Of a stretch of DNA of 64,000 nt, positions 1 to 60,304 are shown in pieces; the first letter of the stretch is position 1; every line of letters starts with the position of its first letter. Source of the stretch: Anolis carolinensis (Eukaryota). A program made the position numbers and the translations under genes. Where the stretch lies: positions 166,238,897-166,302,896 of the forward strand of contig NC_085845.1 in assembly GCF_035594765.1 (NCBI RefSeq). The letters are read 5' to 3'. Under the pieces are notes generated by a model. The model was not told the origin of the DNA. It ran no database searches and saw only the letters and a program-made list of their open reading frames with translations.

Positions 1-1389
1 GGCCATGGGATTATAACAATTATTTCTGAGTTTCAGTTTTAATTAATCTGAAAATAGATAGTGAAGTCAAATTTTAATGTACTGAACATCTGTCAGACAA
101 ATGGAAATACTTAAAACAAATTACCATACATTTAATTTTGGTTATTTTAATCTGATTTTTTAAAAATAAATTAATGAAGCTGCCCTCCATATATTATGGC
201 TTTTATATGGTGCACATTTCTGGCAACCACAAGAGGTACCCTAATATATGATACAAATCAGATTGAACTTTCAAAGATATGCCGGGAAAAGATAGATACA
301 TTTAAAATAAATCAGAAAGTAGTAGCAAAATAGGGATTTTCCTCTATTTCTTCAAAACTAAAAATGTATTTTGAGTGAAATTTGGTGTTTTTTTTTTAAG
401 GTTTCCATTCCAACAAAGTGGTTCACTGCATCACCTCTTTCTCACTTAGAACATCTGAACTTACGGTGGCTACTGATTCTTGGTATAGAAGATTTTGAGA
501 GTTACATAAGAACTTAATTCCTTCTACCTTGTCCCCAGCTAGCACGTAAATTTGGTGACTCAACCACTGATCCATGATCCTATGGCTATAATATGTACTT
601 TATAAAGATCACCTTAAAATTCCTTCCCTTTTATCTGTAGAAAAGCCTTTCTGAAGCGTCATCTCAACAAAATCTCAACAGTATAGTGATTTGTGAAACC
701 TCTGATGTGAAATAGGCTTAAATGCTTTTGAAAACTACAGGAGAAGTTGAAGCAGCTCACTTCATTTCATAAGTTACTACTACATTCAGATATTCCCTGC
801 AGATCAAAAGCTTAGGTCTCCATATTTGAAGTCTTAAAACTATGAGACATTTCTGTATGGAGTTCTAGCAGGTTTAGATCTAAATTGAGAGCAGTCAGTC
901 TAATACAATACTTAGAACAAGTTCAGTATCATTGCATATATAAGTCACTAGGCATTGCTGTTTAATTATAATCACTAGAAAGCAAAGATTTGGGGTAAAA
1001 TTTTGTGCAACTTGTAAAACATACCAGGAAATATTTGATTAACTTTTGTAAATTCAGACTTTAAAAATAGAAGTTATTTTCCCATGTTGAGTCCAATTCT
1101 GTTGATTTGGGGCGGGGTTATTAAGTTGGCTAGGAGGCATTGTTAAGTACCATCATAATAGGAGGGCTCTAAGAAAATGTTTCCATATTCAAATGTCTGA
1201 AATTCTGCCCACAAACCATTTGAGCATGGTTTTACATACTGGGTCCTGTTACGCAAAATAGTTATTTCTTGGAACTTTCTTCTAGAGGATTTATACTCCA
1301 TTTTAATAAATTTCAACCTAATGTTGTACTTGCATGATATTGTAATTAACAACTGTTCTCAGGTTGTTTTTTTATTATACTATATCTCC

Positions 1390-2215
1390 ATAGTCTCAAA
1401 CCATGTCTTATAGACTCATGGCTGTGGCTTCCTTGATACAGTCTATTCATATGGAATGTGGGTTTTTTTGTTGTTGGATTCTGGCTTATCAGGCTTTATT
1501 ATCTTTTCTGATAAGTCATGTCTTCTTGTGATATGGCCAAAATGCAATCGTTTCTGTTTAGTCATCTAGGCTTTTAGAAAGAGTGCCGACTTAATTGCTC
1601 TAGGAGTCATTTATTTGTTTTTTTTTTACATTTCATGGGATCCAATTCTTCTCCAATTCTTCTTCCAGTAGCACATGAGTTGATTTTTCCCCCTATCAGC
1701 TTTCTTCACTGTCCAGCTTTCACAAACATTCATTGAAATTGGAAACACGATAGCATGGAAAATCCTAACTTTGGTATTCGATTATACATCTTTAGACTTC
1801 TGAATCTCATTGAGTTCCCTCATAAGTGCTCCTCCTTTTGACTGCAGTCCCCACTCCGATTAATGACTGAACCAAGATATGGAAAATATTTAAATAATAT
1901 AGTGTCGTCATAGTTTCTTTTAAATTTATTTTTAAAACCGTGGTTGTTATTTTTGTTTTTTAACGTTCAACTGCCTTTGCCTTTCTTCCTTCAGTAATTA
2001 TTCCTTCAGTAATTATTCCAAATCTTTGCTGTTTTCTGCAAATAGTGTGGTAGCATCTGAACATCTTAAACTTGTTGAAATTCCTTCCTCCAATGTGTAT
2101 GCCCCTTTCCTCCAATTCTAATCCTGCTTTATATAGGGTATGTTCAGCATACGACGTAAACAGGATGATAAAATGCAGCCTTTCCTAACACTCTTGCCAG
2201 TTGGAAACTGTATTC
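1390..2215 (-). mobile_element. Degenerate RTE (BovB-like) LINE fragment
   Basis: Minus-strand relics GKSVRKGCILS..., SWTVKKADR.KINS, and FGHITRRHDL.EK. Confidence 0.75.
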
Positions 2216-2562
2216 TGCTTTGCCACTAGCCTCTTATCCTTTAATTTTATTGTTTGTGGAAAGCTCATATCAGAAAAGTCATGTAAGTCTGCTTCAGGAA
2301 AGACCAGTTCAGCAGCTTGTCAAGTCCTGCTGTTTGGCTATCGTGGAGCTGTCCATGGTCCAGCTTCTGATTCACTATACTGTGCACTGCCTATAAAGTG
2401 GGTTGTGGCCTCAAAAAGATAGATTCAGTCCTCTCATGTTGCTAGAAATTTTAATGCATTGCTTTGACTTTCTGTTTTAATATTTAATTTTAATATTTAA
2501 TGTTTTAACTTTTAAATTATATAATTATTTTCAAAATTTTATATTTATACTTTTTTTCAGTA

Positions 2563-2896
2563 CAGTAGAGTTCCAGTTATCTGACTTCCGGTTATCAGAT
2601 CTACCGTATTATCTGACATGCGACCCAGGGTGCTTGCTGGAGGGACGAGATGTGGCTGGAGCAGACTTTCCCTCCTGGCAAGCACCCGGCACTTTGGAGA
2701 AGCCCACTACATGTTGCTAGACAGCAACATGCGGCGGGCTTCTCTAACCTGGTTGCTTGCCAGGAGGGATGAGGCTTTTCCCTCCTGGCAAGCACCCGGC
2801 TTGCCGGGATGGATAATAAGGCCTCCCTATTATCCAAAGTTTCATTTATCTGACATTTGGCCCGCCCGTTTATGTCGGATAACCAGAACTCTGCTG
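2563..2896. mobile_element. Tc/mariner (Tigger-like) MITE
   Basis: TA|CAGTAGAGTTCCAGTTATCTGAC...GTCGGATAACCAGAACTCTGCTG|TA. Confidence 0.88.
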
Positions 2897-5049
2897 TATC
2901 TTTGCAGCTCCATTGATTTGCATTGGGAAATAGAAACAGATTTTTTGTTAATCAAGTTCATGAAGTTTGGCAACATTTGAATCCCTTCAAGTAGATAAAT
3001 CCATAAACAAAGTTGATAAACCTTACCAAATTGCAGACAAGTGGTTCCAGAGCTTTGTGTACTAGCCAAAATAACATTTTAAATCAACTTCACTGATTAT
3101 TTCCAATATATTAAAAACCATAGAAATACACATTTGGCTACCAACATAGAAATAATAAGAAAAGTGAAAACTGTTGAAAACAATCCCACAATACATTTTG
3201 AAAGAAGATTTTAAATGGTATCTAGGGGGGCTCAAAATATTTTTGTTTGCTTATCAAGACTTAATCAACCTGATTGTTTTATTTTATATGTGCATATTGT
3301 TCGTTTTGAATAAAAGGCTTGCTAAAATATATTGTACAGTGTGCATGTAATTTTGGAATCTATACGTACTTCATGTTATTTGTTATTTGTTTTTCAGTGA
3401 AAGAAGTAAGTCCAGGAACACATCTGCTTTCTTAACTGAGATATACTTGTGAACATGCTAAAAATAGGTGCTGTTGTGATATGCAAATGTACAACAATGC
3501 ATTTATTTAAGGTGAGTTTTGACTTACTTGTGGGAGCCATCCCATGGTATTTGCTAAAAGCATCCAAGATTGAACCTACCTATAATTAAGTCCCTTCATA
3601 TTCTTGGCAGTTAATGGTGGAGAGAAATAAAAGGTAAATGAGATGAACTTTTAAAGTGAAACAGGTGTTCTCATCATATATGCCATCATCACGTAAGTCA
3701 GTGTGTACACTGGGACTCCAAACAGCTTAATGAGGATGCTCAGAAGGCAAACAAGCAATAGCTGCCAGTAGGTGGTACCGGAAGAAAAGTAATAACAATC
3801 AAGAGAAACAGCAGTGCAAAGCAGTTCCTTTTCCTATTCCTTAGTGATAATTTAAGCTATTAACCTAAATAAACCTAAAGGTGTCTGTCTGGGTTTATTG
3901 ACTACCTCTGTGAATTGCAAGAGCGGAAGAAAGTCTTCTACTCTTGCAGAATATAATTTCAATTACATCTTCTACAAACATGTTATGTTACTACTACATT
4001 AAAAATGTATTGCAATTTGTCATACCCTACACCTTTCTCATGCCAACTGCCTGGAACTGTTTTTTTTAAAGACATTAAATGCTTATATCTGGGATTTGGA
4101 AATTTTCCAAGTAAGCAGAATTAAATAATATTTCTACCATAAATATAACTCCTCTTCACAGCTTTATTATTTGGAAATAACACAAAAATTCTAATGCTGC
4201 TGAAGATAAATTCAGGTCAGTTTTAAAAGTAGTGATCAAACTTTCTTTTTTGCATCTGGAAGATGAATGTGCTCACTACAGAACTGTATTTGAATATGCA
4301 TGTTATTTCTGGATGGTTCTCTTTGTCATATTGACCACATTCAAAATAGGGCTCATTCTGGAGTGAAAGTATTAACAGAATCACTTCTGAAAATATTTTG
4401 TTGATGAAATACAAAAAGCTATTGCCAACAACACAATTGCCTGCCAGAAGATAGATACACAAGTTCTTTATGGCTTCCAAATGCATCTGAAAACCTCTCC
4501 TTGACCTTCAGTTTCATCATGACCTTTGTAACTTGAACACATGGAAAACAATCACTTGATAAGTTCTACTAGATTATCAACAACTTCCATGATGCCATCG
4601 ACGTGATCCTGTAACAATCCACATAACAAATTCACTTTTTTGAGGTACAACTGCACAATGGGCTAAGTACTACACTATCAGAAGCCTACTAATTTTTACA
4701 CATATTTGCATGCCCCCGGTTTCTACACAGAATCCATTTCTGTTGCGTACACTCTGAAACAATCACATTAGATCAAATGAGACCCACAGGGCAGAGAGTC
4801 ACAACTCTTTGATTTACAACAGACATTTCTCAAACTACAATACTGACTAAGGAAGATGAATTAACAAATTGACAAAGTAATATTAATACCTAGAAATCTT
4901 TACTACAAGACAGATCAAAACCACAAAATAGAAGCAGACTCCTAAATGTCACCTCCAGCCCCCAGGTGAGATCACTTAATCACATCATGAGCACATTGCA
5001 ACCAATTTTGGAAAATAACAGTTTTCTCACAAGCTGCAGAATATTCAAT

Positions 5050-8000
5050 TACTACTTACAACAGAATACATAACATGGATGGTAATACAGTGACAAGCCC
5101 CTGCCAAAAACCTAAGGGCAACTCTATTCCCACATCTACTCTGGAGCATTGTTAGATGGGCCAATAACATCACTCTTAACAGCAGATGTACCTTTACTTC
5201 TTTTTCCTCCAAAGAGATATATGCTATCGTCTGCAAGTAATGCTCCTCTACATGCCACACTAGACAAACAGACCATTTTCTCTGCAAGAGGATTAATAGA
5301 CACCAATCTGGCATTAGAATTGGCAGTGCTCAAAAACGTATCTGCCTTCCTGGACACACAGAAACAGATGTCTGGATGTGTGGTCCTTGAACAAAGAAAT
5401 TTCAAAGATAGAAAGAAAAACTGCTGAATCACACTACATTCATAAATTTCAGTCCATTAGCAGTGGTATTAACAAAGACAGTGGTTTTAAGAGTTCTTGT
5501 TACTGCACAGATAAAGGGAATCTTGGAGTTTTGAAACTGACTTTTGGTAAGATTTTTTGGTTTTACACATCCATACTAATTGACCACTTGCCATTTACAG
5601 GCAAACTACAGTTCAGAAAATAAAAGACTAGCAACTTTATGTAAGAAAATTTAGTTGATCATAGTGCAACATATGTTGGTAGGTTGAGGAATGTACACAA
5701 TACAGTTATAGGTAAAACAATTCAAATATTCCTTAGGCCTTCAGTCCATTTGTCAAGAAGCACATGAGTCCGCTTGCATAGGTTTCCCCCTCATTGGTCT
5801 ACTTATTCAAAACTACTCAGAAATACCTCACCTTCTCATCATACCAGGTTTGTTAAGGCAATGACTAAACTCCCTTTACAACTGCACATAAATCTATTAG
5901 ATGAGGATAAGCAATTCCAAATATGTCCCAGCAGGTCCAATATGCTTGCAGGTAAAAGCATTGTAAAAGCATAATACCCATTATCCATATAATATATAGC
6001 CAAAAAGAGCAATTTATATACATATATTACAGATGAGGAATAAACCTGGCAGGGCTCATGTTTTTTGAAAAATTGGACTAGATTCCTGATTTGCATCTTT
6101 TTGGACCCTATTTGATAATACCCCATTCCTTCAACTATATAAAGATGTTTTCTAACTAAGGCTGTAGTACTACTTTGTATTGCATTCCAAGAAGTGGGTT
6201 TATATCCATGCAAGCCCCCATTAGCATAGACCCATTGAATAAATGGCATGTTATGTTTAAGTACATGCCATTCAGCATTGATGCAGTTTACCTACCTAGA
6301 CTATGTGGGATGAATCATTGCACCGAGACATTTACATTCCCAGATATTCACAAAGTCTTATAGTCATCTGCCCGTTGGACAACAATCACAGTGGATCCTT
6401 TGTATCTGTTGGGATTTGGTTCCAAGACCACCCCACCCTCGTGGATACCAAAAATCCATAAATGCTCAAGACTCATATACAAAGGTGTAAAATGAAGTCC
6501 CTTATGTGAAATGGCAAAGTTTGCCTTCTGGATTAAAAAAGAAAAACAGTTTTAAAGCTGTGGATAGCTGAATGCAGAATCCATCATTACATGTGGGATC
6601 CAACAAAGTTTTAAATCCCCACTAGATGGAGATGTTGGTGCTCCCTCCAATTTCTTCAGTCTGAAGCAAAATGAAACATATCACCAGCAGATGGTAAAAA
6701 CACGTTTTCAAAATGTTTGAGGCGTTGAGCCAGCTTATGTAGTGCTTTTGTTTGGTTGGAATTTGAATGATGTGTGTTGGTGGCATAAAGCCAAGAAGCT
6801 CACTCACTAAACTTGTAAATAATGGAACACACTATTACGGGTAACATTATGTCACTGTCTAGTTATACAAGAATTTGATAAAATGTAGCTATAACCAGCA
6901 TAAGTCAATTTCCTTATTAACTTTTGCTAGCTAATGCATTCATCTACGTAGAATGGCAAAAGGAGTGGGGTCTTAAAGGTTCACCAGATGATTAAGAATG
7001 TCATGTGACACTGCTTTTTGGATGCAAATGCAATTTTCATGTGGTAGACATCACATTTTCTGTTAAACAACAAATTGTCATTACCAGATTGTGTTTGAGT
7101 ATATTTATCTGGTTTAAGTGATATGATGATTACTGCAATGTATAATCTGATGAGAGATACTTGGGAGCCAGAGTAGTTTTGTCCGTCAGTAACAGAACTT
7201 GTTTAAACTGCTTTATAAAACATGGAGTCTCCCCCTGTTGTGTACTTAGCTTCTTGGTGATTTAGATGGGTTCTAAACTAATATTTTGGACAAAAGACGG
7301 CATTATAATAAACATGCTATCAGTAGTTATTCAAAACTGTTGAGAACTTTAAATTTTTATTTTAATGTCATCTACATTTAATGTCATCTACTGCAACCAT
7401 ATTTGGTTTGGTACTTTTAAAGTTTTGATGTAGCTTCACAGATAAGACCAATGCTCTAGGTGTACTAGTCTGGGGGAAAAGCTCTCTCAGGCACTAACTC
7501 CCCAAAGGATCTTGCAAACTAAAAGTTTTAAACACAATTAATCAGAGTGACTCCAAAAAGGAAATGAAGTGACCTGTTTATAAGTTCGGTACAGGAGATT
7601 TTATTAGTGACAATTTACTGCTTTACTTATTGGACATGCCCAAAGGCTGAGACATAACATATCAGTAGGACACAGTCTATATTAAAAGCCTTAACCATGG
7701 CTTTTAAAATGAGTCAATGGTTTTCTGTAAGGAGTAATAAATCCTTGATGTTCTTACCTTTTAATATCATATATTGCACAGTGATAAAAAAGGTTATATT
7801 GAAAATCAGAAAATTAGGATTTTATTCATCATAATGCCAAGTAAATTCTGTGGATTTTTCAAGTATAGATTAAATACAGTATTCATGCTTGCTATTTTGT
7901 TGGAAATTATTGACAAACAGGATATAAAGCTACCAGGAATGATAGCTGTCAAAAATCATGAAGACAAAGAAATCAGCCTATTTTATGTTGCTTCTTGACT

Positions 8001-8635
8001 TCACCAAGGATAAATACACAGAAAACAACTTACCCATAGATTATTTGCTGTTAATGGGAAAGCAGTATAAGATATATAAACCTCCTAGCATTCCGATTTA
8101 CCCAAAGTAAAATCAAAGATTTGGCAACATATTTGGCATGCTTATGAATACTGAAGATCTAATGTTTTCTCTCTCTCATTTTCACTTACAAAGAATGAAG
8201 CAGTTAGTGCATGTAGTTGTCAATATTTAGCTTGTTTTTAAAGGCAATTGATTTGTTTATAATTTATTTTTTGCAGAAAAATACAGAGATGAAGGAAACC
8301 CTTGATATGGTCACAAGTGACAAGTCAAATTTCCCTAAAATTTGTGATTGTCTCAAAGTATAATGCATATTTGAAGGCCATGTTTAATTCACAAGATTGA
8401 TATAATTTATAAAGCATTTAAAAGGTTTGTTGATGCATCTGGATTTATTTTTAAAAGTTGCACTGAGTGAATTGTCAATCACAAAACATTTTCTGCCTCT
8501 AGGGTATTGAGGTTTTGCAACATGGTTTAGATTATGTATATGGCTTGTGTTTCCTGTCTGTGATGAGAATTTCAATGCCCTTTGAATATGGTCAACCCAC
8601 AAACAGCAGAGTACTTTTCTGCATCTCTCCATCAT
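5050..8635 (-). pseudogene. Putative decayed BTB-BACK-Kelch (KLHL-like) pseudogene
   Basis: Ordered relics on the minus strand, with stops and frameshifts: MLQNLNTL/RQKMFCD (BTB start), LNIDNYMH and NNLWV..W......R...L (BACK), YANGGLHG, HLYIVEG, DKWTE, INPLAEK..LSSV.CRGALLADDSIYLFGG (Kelch). Confidence 0.45.
6389..6590. mobile_element. Degenerate Tigger-like MITE
   Basis: cagtggatcctttgtatc...ttggttccaagacc...gtggataccaaaatcc start; 3' end eroded. Confidence 0.55.
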
Positions 8636-9474
8636 CTGAAGAAAAAAAAGCGGGATTTATTTTATTCTAGTAAATTATATTATATAAAAACAAAATATCA
8701 GTAAGGCCAAAGCACTAGCTGGGACTCTTTTTGTCCAATCTGGTTTTGCTTGTTTTTTTTAGTAGTAGGTGGTAGTGTTTAAAAAAGTCTTTGTGGAAAA
8801 AACGTTATGGAAAAGTCAGGGACCCTGTATGCAACACTGCAAGAGACAGTACCTACTATATTTTAATTCTTGTTCTGTGTAGATCTAGCAACATATACTT
8901 TAGATGTACTAAAGTATTCTGTCCTAATACATAAAGGTTAACATTTCTAATAGCCTTAAGAACTCAAACCTTTCCATTTAATTGGGTATCAAACCTATTA
9001 CATGGTAATTATTTGCTTTAAAATTGTCAGTTTAAATGGTACATTTCTTTTTCCTTGAAATTGCAGTAGAATGTGTAAAAACATAACTCTGATCATTTTT
9101 GGTGCAGTAAGACCAGCATGTTGTCATCTTTCCACTGTGCTCTTTGCTATTTAAAATGTCTATAGCAAGGAAGGACATTAATTGGTGGAGTCAAAATGCC
9201 ACAGTCAAACTGTTTTTATTCTTAACCGTGCAGCAGAGAATAGTGACGCCATAATGACCTAGTCTCAGTGCACTCTGTCACACATTGCATGTCACTGCAA
9301 AAGGAGATAATGCACAATCCACACGTCTGCTGCTCACGTTGCACTAGATTTAAAACATTAAAGCACAAGTAAACAATGAGACAAGTACTGTCTATTCGAT
9401 CTCTATTGTATAACTTTTGTTTTTGATAAATTTTATGAATGCATATAGGGGAATATGAACATTTTACCAGGAGA

Positions 9475-9628
9475 ACATGCTGCCTCAGAGGGTGGTGGAG
9501 TTGCCTTTATTGGAAATTTTAAACAGAGGCTGGATGGCCATTTTTAAGGAGTGTTTTTACTGTGCATTCCTTTATGGCAGGCAATTGGACTGGATGTCCT
9601 TTGTGGCCTTTTCCAGCTCTATAATTCC
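9475..9628 (+). mobile_element. Older CR1 3' fragment
   Basis: [18 protein letters not shown]-like end plus a degenerate CR1 3' UTR (ttggactggatg...ttccagctctataattc). Confidence 0.75.
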
Positions 9629-10487
9629 AAACCAACTAGGCAGGAGTTTGCATTCTTTGTCACTTATTGTTATTAAGACCTCTTCTTTCTTCTGTCAGTT
9701 TTTAATATCCTGCCCAGCAACATGACACAAATTTCTCTTCTCCATTTCAGTCAGGGGTAGGATTAAACATGTAGGCTAAAAATTAAACATGTCTGAAATG
9801 GAAAAGAAGGCAAGAGAGGAGAAAACAGTGATGGAAATTTTAAAAAGTGCAAGCTAAAATAAAAAACAAGAAGCTTTCTCTCCCAGTGATGATCCAGAAG
9901 CTGATTGGAGACGTGGAAAAGTGCACTCCCCCCCCCCCCCAGATGACCACTGTCAAACAGATCTTCGAGGATGTAAAAAAAACAGTCAAGAAAGATATTT
10001 CAGTCCCCAAATGATAATCAGACAGAGGAATTGAAATTAGCTACTGGGAGAAACAGTGGAAAAGAAGATGAGTAAAGACAAGGCGCAGCAAACTGAAAAG
10101 AAAAAAAAGTAATTCAAACTGCTTCAATGGACTTCAACAATGAACAAATTCAACTTAAGAACAAACGTACAGAGCCTATCTTGTTAAGGGACTACCTGTA
10201 CTAATATGATAGATTCACACATGGTTTTGCTCACTGTTAAAAAAAAATGAAGCATATTTTGCATGTGTTTGTATTTTTTATTTATACATTTGTTGCTGTT
10301 TTCAGCTAATTATAATTCAGTCTTTTTACAACTCATAATTTAAAATGACATTTTACATTGTATGGAATTTTACCAACTCAATAGAGCGATTAACAATTAA
10401 ATGTGTAATGTACAGCTAGATTACACTTTTTACAAAAATAAAATGTTTAAATATTGTACCAGATCGAGAGTAAGAGAATTTCACTGA

Positions 10488-10649
10488 GGCCCCATCGACA
10501 CTGCCGTTATAATGCAGGATGAGCTGCTTTATATGATCAGTGTAGACATATAATCTAGTTCAGTGCAAGTAAATTGTATTATATGATGAGTCTACACTGA
10601 CCATATAATGCAGTTCAATCTGTGTTATAATGGCAGTGTAGATGGGGCC
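10488..10649. mobile_element. Palindromic PIF/Harbinger-like MITE
   Basis: TGA|GGCCCCATCGACACTGCC...GGCAGTGTAGATGGGGCC|TGA with a 3-bp TSD. Confidence 0.85.
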
Positions 10650-11126
10650 TGAGTTTGAGTAAGCACTATGGCTACAAATGACCAATAATAATTACTGAAA
10701 GCAAACCCTGATCTAATAATGATTCTTTATTTTACAAGTCACTGCCTGGATGATTGGGCAGCTCTCCAATGGCCTAAGATAATGTATAAAGATGAACAGA
10801 ACATTAACATGGCTTCTGCACAGCTAGAATTTTTCCCCATTTTTAGCAACATAAATCTTTTCCAAAAACCTATGAGTAGTTCCAGTGTATTAACACATCT
10901 TGAAGATCTGTGCATGATACAGGAGACACTTCCCCAGGCAAGTTACACTGTTTTTTAGACCAGTCTCTGAAGGGTTACATCACATTTTACTAGCAATAGC
11001 AGACAATTTATAACTAAATGTCTTTATAGTGCAAAGTTCATCTCCCCCACATAGTATTTTTCTTCTAACAACAAAACAGTTTAATCTTCACAAATGAAGA
11101 TACCCTATTGATAACACATGGTACAT

Positions 11127-11140
11127 TTTATTCATTTATT
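11127..11140 (-). terminator. Candidate tandem polyadenylation signals of BLTP3B
   Basis: Minus strand reads AATAAATGAATAAA about 215 nt after the stop. Another AATAAA is at 11329-11334. The actual 3' end is unknown. Confidence 0.4.
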
Positions 11141-11353
11141 CATGCCACCATCTATTAAACAAATTAGTAACATATAATAAAAAGTTATATTCGCTGCGTC
11201 ACTGCAGCTTAAAGCAAGTCTAAAAGAGAAAAAAAAAACCATTGTAATTCTTTGTTGATGTCCCTATAAGAACAATATAGTACGGAAATTTTGTTCTGAG
11301 CTCAAGTTAAAAATGAAACGCATCCCTTTTTATTCTACAGTACACGTGTTCTG

Positions 11354-55697
<44,344 letters not shown>

Positions 55698-58650
55698 CTA
55701 AAATAGAAAACACATTAACTCGGGTGTTACTTCATTAAAAAGTCATTATTAATGTTAAAATATATAAATAAATAATCTTTACCAATTTTAATTTGAAGAT
55801 TACATTTTGAAAAGGGACCCTGAATGTATAGATTAAATATTAAAATATTATCATTTTACTATTATTACACATGTATATAATTCTATTATTATTTTTATCT
55901 TGCTGTGTCCTTTAGGCTCAGAATCTTTTATTTTTTCCATCTTTACAAGAACCCTTATTACAGTAAACATGTGTGAAAGGTCCACTTCAGAAACCCTAAG
56001 GTTCATAGCTGACAGAGGATTTGAATGTGTCTGTATCTGGTCTTCTCCAAATCTTTGGTCCTTGCCACTGGTGATAACAGTGTGTTTATTAACATTCCTA
56101 CAGTTAAAACAAGTACTTAATGGAAGTTGTTTTGCTGTGCTTAGGTTTCCACTCAACTGCTGGAAAACTAGATGGTAACTTGCCAACACTCCTTGCTTTA
56201 CTAACAATACGAAATAAAGGAGGGAAACCACAATTTGGAGTCAAACATCGTACGAAGCAGGCAGTACAAAGTATTTGTCTCACAAGCCACTCCTAAACCA
56301 AAACCAAAATTCTGCTAAATAAAACTCCATACTCTGTGAATGGATGTATTCCAATGATGACACTTCACAGATATGCAATATCCTACTTGTTTATAGTTTC
56401 AGGGATGAAATTTCCTGACTTTAAAAAAATTCTTGTTTATTCTACAGTCAAAAGGAAATAATCCAGTTTCCTTTTAGACTGTTTCAGCTTTCTGGGGGGG
56501 AAAAAAAAACAACCCACATTCAGTCATTACAACAGTACATAGTCTCCAATAGTCCTACTACTGTTTTGTTGCTACTGTCATCCTTAAGAGCTAGCAATAC
56601 TAAGTTCGTTTCTTTTCTGAAAGGAAAAAATGGCTTTATTACTTTCACCATCAAAGGAAATATGCTTTGAATATCAGTTACTGGAGACCATGATCTAGTC
56701 CTATTGCCTTCATGTCATCCAGTGAGCTTAACATGGGGAGTTTTTAAGCCATTATGGAAACAGAATAAGACTATTTTATTTATTTATTTCATAACTCACT
56801 TGTGTGAACAGTTTATTCTACTCGTAACCAATACTATTAAATGTCAATTCAGTACTTTTGAAGAATAAAGGAAGACTATGTGATTTTAATTTTAAAAGTG
56901 TAATTTTCATTATTATTTACTTCTAAATATATATTCACACTACAGAGTGGGGAAGCATAGTCAAGGAACAGGAGCATCTTCGATACGGAAATTCAAAATA
57001 TTTCAAAAAGATGATAGAGTTAGAGATGCCTTTGCATTCTGAAGGCTCTATGTACATAAACTTTGTTTCATGCATAAAATTATTTTAAAATGTTGTGTAC
57101 AGTATACAATTCCCTTCAAAATCCAAAACATTTCTGATCTTGAGTATTTCAGATAAGAGATACCCATCCTGCAACTGTGTTTACTATTTCTTGCAAGTAT
57201 AAATATGACTCTCAAATTTTAATGAGAACAGATCTCTATTTTCCATTACATTACTTGTATGTACTTTTCTAGATACTCTTAATAACTAAGTTTTAAATAG
57301 GCGTATAAGTATATAAATCTCTAGTGTTCCTACCAGAGGTATAAACACAATTTCATGAGCCTTCTCTAGAAAATAAAGGTACTGTTTCATAATGAGTAGT
57401 GTGATGGGAGGCTTGCATTCCATGCTGACATGATCACTACATATTTTCTTTTAAACAGGTTAACTAGTTTCCTCTCCATTTCCATTTGCTTCTTTGCATT
57501 CCTCTAATATGTTCTTCTTGTGTGCCTTCTGAAAGTCTTCTTTATCAGGGCTACTTTACTTTTTTGGGGCTAATTTTACAACCATAGTTCTATCCCATTA
57601 TAGAGCAGAGATGCTGTGGAGATACTATGGGCCCCATGTATTTGTGTTCCAACTTTAAAAAAAACACTGGCCTGTACAGTATTTTTAAAAACGTGTGTTT
57701 TGCTGCTAAGTAACATACAATTTTTATTGGCAGGATTTTTAATGAAAACGTTGCCTATTTCAAACTTTCTACTAAGTGAGCTGCCTTCTGAGAACTAAAT
57801 ACAAGGGATGTATGACTTGTTATTAAATGAAATAAAATATTAATGTCTTGAATTGGCTGTACTTTGCTGATTCATTGCTAGCGTGTTTCCCCGAAAATAA
57901 GACCTCCCCAAAGAATAAGACCTAGCAGGGGTTTGGGGGGATTGCCAAATATAAGGCCTCCCCTGAAAGTAAGACCTAGCAACTAAGGCTGCAGCAGAGT
58001 TCCATTGGGAAGCATGGCTGCAGGGCAGAAGCAGCACTCATTCATACACCGGAGGGAGGGAGGTGCTTGCTTTCTGTGCCTCCCTCCCTCCCTCCCTCCC
58101 TGCCTTGCCTTTCCTGTTTCCCCAGCCACGGCTTGAAAAACCTTCCATGGCTGCTGCTGCGCTGCCGTTTCTTCCTTCCTTCCGTCTCCCTCCTGGCCAT
58201 GCTGCCTTCGCCCCCAAGGCTTCTGATTGGCTCCTGGAGCCCAGGCAAGGGAGGGTGGGAGGGAAGGAAGGAAGAGGGCTTTCCACTCCTCCCCAAGGCT
58301 TCGCTCCTTAAAGGTACAGGATGCATTGGGATTCTCCTCTCATCCTTATTCCTATCCTATGCCATGAAACTGATTATTTTATACTATTATTCTATTACCA
58401 TATTATTATCATCATATTCTGTTACTATTATTATATCCCATTATTATATTATCCTATTAATATATTTTAAATCATTATATTATATTTTTCTATTATTATT
58501 ATATCATTATATTATTATTTTATTATTATTCTATTATATTTTCATATTATTATATTATTATTCTGTTATTATTAAATTCCATTTTATATTACCCTATTAA
58601 TATATTTTATATCATTATATTCTATACTATTATTCTATTATATTATCATA

Positions 58651-60304
58651 GCCATCTTCAACCTCAGCAACATGGAATGGACGAAGGATTGGGGGAAATC
58701 CAACCCCAAATAGGGAAACAAGTTGTCCAGGAACACCTGGCCACTCTAAACGAATTCAAGTCCCCAGGGCCAGATCAGCTACATCCAAGAGTATTGAAGG
58801 AACTAGCGGAAGTTATTTCAGAACCACTGGCAATCATCTTCGAGAGTTCTTGGAGAACAGGAGAAGTCCCAGCAGATTGGAGGAGGGCGAATGTTGTCCC
58901 TATCTTCAAGAAGGGAAAAAAGAACGACCCAAACAATTACCGTCCGGTCAGCCTCACATCAATACCAGGCAAGATTCTGGAAAAGATCATTAAGGAAGTG
59001 GTCTGCAAACACTTAGAAACAAATGCGGTCATTGCTAATAGTCAACACGGATTTACCAAAAACAAGTCATGCCAGACTAATCTGATCTCTTTTTTCGATA
59101 GAGTTACGAGTTGGGTCGATGCAGGGAATGCCGTGGATGTAGCATATCTAGATTTCAGTAAGGCCTTCGACAAAGTCCCCCACGACCTTCTGGCAAACAA
59201 ACTAGTAAAATGTGGGCTAGACAAAACTACGGTTAGGTGGATCTGTAATTGGCTAAGCGAACGAACCCAAAGGGTGCTCACCAATGCGTCGTCTTCATCA
59301 TGGAAAGAAGTGACAAGTGGAGTGCCGCAGGGCTCCGTCCTGGGCCCGGTTCTGTTCAACATCTTTATTAACGACTTAGACGAAGGGTTAGAAGGCACGA
59401 TCATCAAGTTTGCAGATGACACCAAACTCGGAGGGATAGCTAACACTCCAGAAGACAGGAGCAGAATTCAAAACGATCTTGACAGACTAGAGAGATGGGC
59501 CGAAACTAACAAAATGAAGTTCAACAGGGACAAATGCAAGATACTTCACTTCGGCAGAAAAAATGGAAATCAAAGATACAGAATGGGGGACGCCTGGCTT
59601 GACAGCAGTGTGTGCGAAAAAGATCTTGGAGTCCTCGTGGACAACAAGTTAAACATGAGCCTACAATGTGATGCGGCAGCTAAAAAAGCCAATGGGATTT
59701 TGGCCTGCATCAATAGGGGAATAACGTCTAGATCCAGGGAAGTCATGCTCCCCCTCTATTCTGCCTTGGTCAGACCACACCTGGAATACTGTGTCCAGTT
59801 TTGGGCACCGCAGATGAAGGGAGATGCTGACAAGCTGGAAAGCGTCCAGAGGAGGGCGACTAAAATGATTAAGGGTCTGGAGAACAAGCCCTATGAGGAG
59901 AGGCTTAAAGAGCTGGGCATGTTTAGCCTGCAGAAGAGAAGGCTGAGAGGAGACATGATAGCCATGTACAAATATGTGAGGGGAAGTCATAGGGAGGAGG
60001 GAGCAAGCTTATTTTCTGCTGCCCTGCAGACTAGGACACGGAACAATGGCTTCAAACTACAGGAAAGGAGATTCCACCTGAACATCAGGAAGAACTTCCT
60101 CACTGTGAGGGCTGTTCGGCAGTGGAACTCTCTCCCCCGGACTGTGGTGGAGGCTCCTTCTTTGGAGGCTTTTAAGCAGAGGCTGGATGGCCATCTGTCG
60201 GGGGTGCTTTGAATGCGATTTCCTGCTTCTTAGCGGGGGGTTGGACTAGATGGCCCTTGAGGTCTCTTCCAACTCTACTATTCTATGATTCTATGATTCT
60301 ATGA
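58651..60304 (+). mobile_element. 5'-truncated young CR1 LINE nested in a Tc/mariner-type non-autonomous element
   Basis: Uninterrupted ORF2 RT frame 58677..60212 ([39 protein letters not shown]), CR1 3' UTR and (ATTCTATG)n tail. Confidence 0.96.
58677..60212 (+). CDS. CR1 ORF2 reverse transcriptase, C-terminal 511 aa (no endonuclease domain)
   Basis: Stop-free frame with all RT motifs. It is 5'-truncated, so it is not an autonomous gene. Confidence 0.9.

Follow-up and report, generated by a model that had tools for sequence, protein, structure and literature searches.

The DNA downstream of BLTP3B in Anolis carolinensis raises the question of whether a stretch in which every reading frame is broken can still carry the outline of a lost gene. 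KLHL (BTB-BACK-Kelch) proteins are Cullin-3 substrate adaptors of ubiquitin ligases, and an earlier note on this DNA had read the minus strand between positions 5050 and 8635 of the window (the whole stretch of 64,000 nucleotides that was analysed) as the relic of such a gene. The analysis described here gives moderate support to one part of that reading, a decayed Kelch-repeat remnant at 5080-5320 and 6000-6300, and the assignment of BTB and BACK segments is left without statistical support. Taken together, it is fairly likely that positions 4900-8635 are the heavily decayed remnant of a dead, intron-bearing KLHL-type (BTB-BACK-Kelch) gene.

The neighbouring gene on the minus strand belongs to the BLTP3A/B family, with Pfam PF24917 (BLTP3A_B) matching its upstream exons at E values of 2.5e-147 and 1.6e-33; this family covers both BLTP3A and BLTP3B, and the label 3B comes from the earlier note. 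Four of the 24 runs listed were compared with positions 1-19000 of the window, and these behave as RNA, since all of them join BLTP3B exons across CT..AC introns. The end of the gene was placed as follows:

11354..11482, minus strand: final coding exon of BLTP3B with its stop codon, from the sequence and from a CT..AC joint 11482-13915 found in 4/4 runs

The stop codon itself occupies 11356-11354, about 2.7 kb before the acceptor-like site at 8635, and the candidate relic lies downstream of BLTP3B on the same strand. None of the four runs matches the window at positions 10854, 11228, 15137 and 15457-15458, which points to common alleles or assembly errors. Inside BLTP3B, on the minus strand at 30097-36064, there is an element of about 6 kb that looks young. 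It has inverted terminal repeats of 155 nt (97%), and of its three long ORFs (727, 713 and 992 codons), which overlap one another, one has RVT_1; we take it to be a DIRS-type retrotransposon. A search of the literature, mostly open papers judged by title and the start of the abstract, found none that connects a Kelch gene or pseudogene with BLTP3B/UHRF1BP1L, and the supplements of gene-loss screens may list the locus.

The motifs on which the relic had been proposed are all where they had been placed, on the minus strand. The acceptor lies at 8645-8636, MLQNLNTL at 8523, RQKMFCD at 8498-8478, FINYI at 8413, LNIDNYMH at 8230-8207 and NNLWVS at 8045; these are followed by YANGGLHG at 6228, HLYIVEG at 6147, DKWTE at 5754 and SINPLAEK...SIYLFGG at 5300-5205. 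They fall in three different frames and are separated by numerous stops, and the longest stop-free stretch of this strand within 5050-8635 is 150 codons. A functional KLHL gene would have an intact open reading frame, and here stops and frame changes run throughout. The features that would frame the amino-terminal half are these:

8636..8657, minus strand: strong acceptor-like site, with the top score of a simple count
7758..8635, minus strand: candidate BTB+BACK exon of 878 nt, broken in all frames, with the motifs present and the domain assignment without statistical support
7750..7757, minus strand: strong donor-like site AAG|GTAAGA ending the candidate BTB+BACK exon, phase 2 in one frame
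6390..6500, strand unassigned: short insertion inside the putative first intron, seen in the sequence

The claim of a strong acceptor near 8635 holds in the sense that no site scores higher, although this top score is common to six minus-strand AG sites of the window. The donor-like sites at 7757 and 5831 both belong to the top 15 of the minus-strand GT sites. Among the 15 joints listed of 45 in the RNA-like runs, none uses the 8636-8657 acceptor and none lies on the minus strand within the relic. The minus-strand sites at 8635 and 7757 are near-perfect, yet the DNA between them is badly decayed; they are either fortuitous or still in use. The insertion at 6390-6500 presumably belongs to the lizard non-autonomous DNA transposons, which it resembles.

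A tandem array or a repeat of the window was considered as the source of the relic motifs, and neither explains them. Elsewhere in the window, at 40358-40884, there is a GC-rich array whose unit measures 90 nt and which contains nested inverted repeats. A 583-codon reverse-transcriptase ORF (RVT_1, E 7e-35) at 58461-60212 on the plus strand marks a truncated LINE, which we assume to be CR1-like, with AT-rich simple repeats on both sides and short 3' fragments at 23867-24117 and 9517-9622.

Standard searches give little. Pfam found no family in the six frames of 4500-9000 with stops written as X, and with 23 pieces of the relic it gave sub-threshold matches only, of which the sole Kelch-type one was Kelch_4 on the last fragment (the 5080-5320 blade; E 0.02-0.059, under its cut-off), the other weak ones being unrelated. 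Searches of the PDB with relic pieces returned no relevant match, and neither single-frame hmmsearch nor tblastn of the region returned any. In the Atlas, the query 5136-5456 reached Kelch clusters at 0.88-0.90, which counts as a lead only, and the query 5839-6291 gave no usable match. No related locus was found in the viral contigs searched. Word-indexed protein searches for longer relatives yielded 75 and 6405 candidates with none at E <=10, and the protein searches found no intact relative or orthologue of the relic; both results are weak evidence.

Frameshift-aware scoring was based on profiles of genuine family members. The reference set consisted of true BTB-BACK-Kelch proteins from public contigs, three of them checked, together with 120 listed of the 417 relatives of one of them; these 120 are mostly arthropod "kelch-like protein 26", and the other references are invertebrate and poxvirus-like KLHLs. 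One reference locus (L001, 2890-4467), used for reference only, is poxvirus-like and holds a 525-aa BTB-BACK-Kelch gene with thymidylate-kinase-like and ligase-like neighbours, as seen by eye. Three profiles were built: "full" from 11 ORFs of at least 500 aa with L040 left out, "k26" from 60 of the 120 relatives, and "mix" from 20 of those relatives plus the 11 ORFs. The profiles overlap and are made of invertebrate and poxvirus-like KLHLs with no named vertebrate protein, which is the main limit of the comparison.

The plainer scores do not set the region apart. Viterbi scoring with a codon-decay model was reached by 0/30 and 1/30 shuffles, and against real background by 19/28 and 17/28 controls. 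With a corrected null, the Viterbi score of the whole region was reached by 8/32 and 25/32 controls, that of the Kelch part by 2/114 and 35/114 and that of BTB/BACK by 112/162 and 159/162, and the raw Forward score of the region was reached by 14/32 and 9/32. Viterbi and raw Forward are thus not significant, and such scores are confounded by composition. A composition-corrected Forward score was then taken, namely the score minus the mean of column-shuffled profiles, and compared with 35 controls (32 overlapping stretches of the window outside three large repeats, and three versions of the region itself: opposite strand, reversed and complemented). By this measure the region stands at +6.6 bits, and the controls have a mean of -0.6, a standard deviation of 1.6 and a maximum of 2.5. 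Correction by shuffling 20-column blocks gives +5.3 bits against a control maximum of 3.3, and four further settings let 1, 0, 0 and 0 of the 35 controls reach the region. Across the five settings the region beats 34-35 of the 35 controls. The corrected statistic was taken up after the plainer scores had failed and the region had been picked by eye from 64 kb, so the signal is read as moderate support; a rough hand Gumbel estimate after selection from 64 kb is about 0.06.

Masking and posterior decoding show where this signal comes from. The stretches concerned are the following:

5080..5320, minus strand: best-preserved Kelch blade, aligned with the final blade and closing strand in the KLHL profile, at posteriors up to 0.94
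6000..6300, minus strand: Kelch-like blade remnant (TTALVRKHLYIVEG ... RNLVQFF) within the 150-codon stop-free stretch
5700..5900, minus strand: Kelch fragments picked by eye, among them DKWTE, together with a strong donor-like site of phase 1 (5831), unsupported by the profiles
4900..4970, minus strand: possible alternative C-terminal exon remnant, beyond the coordinates of the earlier note, picked by eye from the translation

Masking 5080-5320 lowers the score by about 4 bits, masking 6000-6300 by about 2.5 bits and masking 5320-5700 slightly. Masking 5700-6000 produces no drop, which leaves the fragments at 5700-5900 unsupported, and masking 4800-5080 does not reduce the score either. In the posteriors the two remnants keep the correct order: 5255-5110 corresponds to the final blade with the closing strand, and 6174-6115 to a preceding one (0.30-0.37 on its Kelch strands); the placement of 5255-5110 comes from "mix" and "k26", whereas "full" favours 6177-5800. 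Taken by itself, the 6000-6300 blade has no match in Pfam, the PDB or the Atlas. The corrected Forward score of the Kelch part alone is +6.7 bits, reached by 0/58 controls with one profile and 4/58 with another, and without the last blade the Kelch part is matched by 10/100 and 11/100 controls. Of the five to six Kelch repeats expected in a KLHL protein, two blade remnants carry signal and the other blades were undetected. The BTB/BACK/Kelch search of the region lends moderate support to the Kelch component, modestly above controls when frameshift-aware and composition-corrected, with BTB and BACK at background and no significant Pfam match.

A homologous stretch was found in another sequence. 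A phmmer search of 1.84e9 proteins, with one entire frame (5061-8633) as query, gave P0121 (E 7.2e-5) as its single match. This 135-aa singleton protein from a 1019-nt Logan contig corresponds to:

5184..5504, minus strand: stretch homologous to P0121, with 33/90 residues identical, reaching 5504 with frameshifts

The relic DNA is thus conserved elsewhere, and P0121, judged by the frameshifts in its alignment, most likely represents this broken DNA as it occurs in a different animal. P0121 has no Kelch match in Pfam. In the blade, 36/40 codons either encode the P0121 residue or are a single base away from doing so, and several of the changes are non-conservative, as drift predicts. A profile of the pair formed by the window and P0121 gives at least 5 bits in 9/131 real KLHL proteins, against 6/655 shuffled and 0/131 reversed ones, with a best value of 16.7 bits. 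Aligned with "k26" by hhalign, the pair profile scores 30.3 against a column-shuffled maximum of 24.6 (0/40), at an HH probability of only 17%. Compared with neutral copies, the Kelch score of P0121 is better kept but not significantly so (20-72 of 300). Two further readings of the alignment were rejected: the end of the homology at the donor-like site 5191 as an exon edge, since a shifted frame accommodates the closing 13 residues of P0121 only at the level of 72/500 shuffles, which decides neither way, and the higher identity in the blade (23/40 vs 11/50, p 0.0009) as protein constraint, which is confounded by the upstream frameshifts.

These results bear directly on chance as an explanation, by which ordinary AT-rich intergenic DNA and antisense intron would hold one accidental Kelch-like word, the other motifs having been picked by eye from three frames. 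Such an account agrees with the non-significance of all the standard searches, with BTB/BACK at background, with the 2/114 controls that equal the Kelch Viterbi score and with the selection of the region from 64 kb; P0121, moreover, shows homologous DNA and not a former protein. It fits less well with two separate blades that contribute in the correct order at the C-terminal end of the profile, or with a region that ranks first among 36 stretches in 4/5 settings. P0121 is also nearly as Kelch-like as the window (18.1 vs 19.0) despite 9/28 differences, although this is a trend only. Chance is accordingly held to be unlikely, and a remnant of a KLHL-type gene is preferred.

For the remainder of the proposed gene, the measurements are of a different kind. 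Pfam and PDB searches with 7758-8635 gave no match, and masking 7750-8640 leaves the score unchanged. The BTB+BACK block alone has its score reached by 37/88, 38/88 and 74/88 controls, and the BTB domain alone by 39/212 and 73/212, both comparisons having little power at deep decay. The argument from colinear BTB-BACK-Kelch order fares unevenly: only 1/150 block-shuffled profiles reaches the real score, yet masking indicates that the two Kelch blades alone drive it. In simulations with 0.2-0.3 substitutions per site, 32/32 relics score at least 34 against the 22.4 observed, which excludes a mildly decayed typical KLHL. At 0.5-0.6 substitutions per site, real and codon-shuffled genes mostly overlap, so that deep decay is hardly testable. 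The apparent tendency of simulated relics to outscore the real region at deep decay turned out to be a composition effect and was discarded.

Accordingly, a narrower origin has to be weighed, in which the Kelch half alone is a real relic, for example of a truncated duplicate or retrocopy, and coincidence accounts for the splice-like sites and the BTB/BACK motifs. The confinement of the measurable signal to 5080-5320 and 6000-6300 speaks for it, as do the gaps between the Kelch motifs, which by eye leave scant room for normal-sized introns. However, the null result for BTB/BACK is uninformative at 0.5 or more substitutions per site, and a top-ranked acceptor and donor flank a block of BTB+BACK size. 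A Kelch half on its own therefore appears rather improbable, and the remnant of a whole KLHL-type gene is retained as the better account.

The opposite strand of the relic is crossed by a spliced transcript. A plus-strand GT..AG joint from 3511 to 8277 (3509->8275, cut +2) occurs in 3/4 runs from three studies, with donor and acceptor both fitting the consensus, and defines:

3398..3511, plus strand: antisense exon of 114 nt with consensus acceptor and donor (an X10 contig holds 3397-3509)
3512..8276, plus strand: antisense intron of 4765 nt spanning most of the relic, its joint seen in 3/4 runs
8277..10605, plus strand: next antisense exon, which starts inside the putative BACK-coding segment (an X4 contig covers 8275-10605)

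The longest ATG ORF in the two-exon join of 3398-3511 and 8277-10605 has 82 codons, and Rfam found no family in 1-12000. The joint probably belongs to a non-coding antisense transcript converging on the 3' end of BLTP3B, the contigs of the runs showing neither strand, ends nor level. One X10 contig carries 95 extra bases without a place in 1-19000, so a further antisense exon probably lies elsewhere. That the region instead has a present non-coding role, supplying the antisense RNA with splice or regulatory sequence or BLTP3B with a read-through exon, the Kelch likeness being incidental, would suit the joint in 3/4 runs, the unusually clean minus-strand splice-like sites amid decayed DNA and the homology to P0121, but it is hardly credible, since the conserved 5184-5504 sits in the middle of the antisense intron and not at either of the splice sites, Rfam gave no match and such a role is in any case compatible with a pseudogene origin.

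In the reading of a dead KLHL-type gene, the ancestral gene would have encoded a Cullin-3 substrate adaptor and would once have had introns, as the splice-like sites and the structure of KLHL genes suggest, with the 878-nt block between the 8635 acceptor and the 7757 donor as its putative BTB-BACK exon. Its function would have been lost long ago, and drift since then would have left no protein, broken every frame and kept only two Kelch-like blades detectable, in DNA that a spliced plus-strand RNA now appears to cross. If this is correct, one lost member would be added to the vertebrate inventory of KLHL ubiquitin-ligase adaptors, together with a datable gene loss and a small case of dead coding DNA re-used as a splice site of an antisense RNA. 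Its relevance would be to specialists in gene families and gene loss, as an ordinary lost-gene fossil that implies no new mechanism.

Among the paralogues, we assume KLHL14 to be the best fit for the order of motifs and the intron phases. Like KLHL14, the relic would have a single BTB-BACK exon ending at a phase-2 intron, and a further intron, of phase 1, behind the first blade; words that we take by eye to match KLHL14 occur near 8523-8478, 8262-8215, 7775, 6084, 5232 and 4967, and on this comparison the relic presumably continues to about 4900. It is this putative fit that raises the case for a dead KLHL gene from about even to fairly likely. Among the 60 PDB rows listed of 184, KLHL22 was present and KLHL14 absent. 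If the gene was KLHL14, the span of the relic, less than 4 kb, would mean that most introns are very short or have lost part of their length. A more specific history is possible but doubtful: early vertebrates would have had an ancient KLHL14-like paralogue 3' of BLTP3B, which died in the reptile line and is still whole in certain fish or amphibians (possibly as the fish "klhl13-like"), and its BACK-coding DNA would have provided a new antisense lncRNA with the acceptor at 8277. In fish, anks1b lies on chromosome 4. In the supplement of a study of fish genes, klhl14 spans 5.5-22 kb (PMC10179623), and its Tables S1-S3 name, for zebrafish and Carassius only, a compact extra KLHL gene, "klhl13-like", of about 2.7 kb and 496 aa on chromosome B4 (PMC10179623). 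This gene is a candidate only, on the strength of its size and name.

Set beside the KLHL adaptors of arthropods, other invertebrates and poxvirus-like loci, the relic shares the Kelch-blade pattern, in which 5255-5110 takes the place of the final blade and closing strand. It differs in that every frame is interrupted, neither BTB nor BACK is detectable and its scores stay far under the Pfam cut-offs. A second comparison is offered by the unitary pseudogenes overlapped by lncRNAs. Membership of that class requires an intact syntenic orthologue in outgroups and the absence of a functional copy in the lizard itself, and the relic is a candidate for it; what it has in common with these pseudogenes is the combination of broken frames, residual splice-like sites and antisense transcription.
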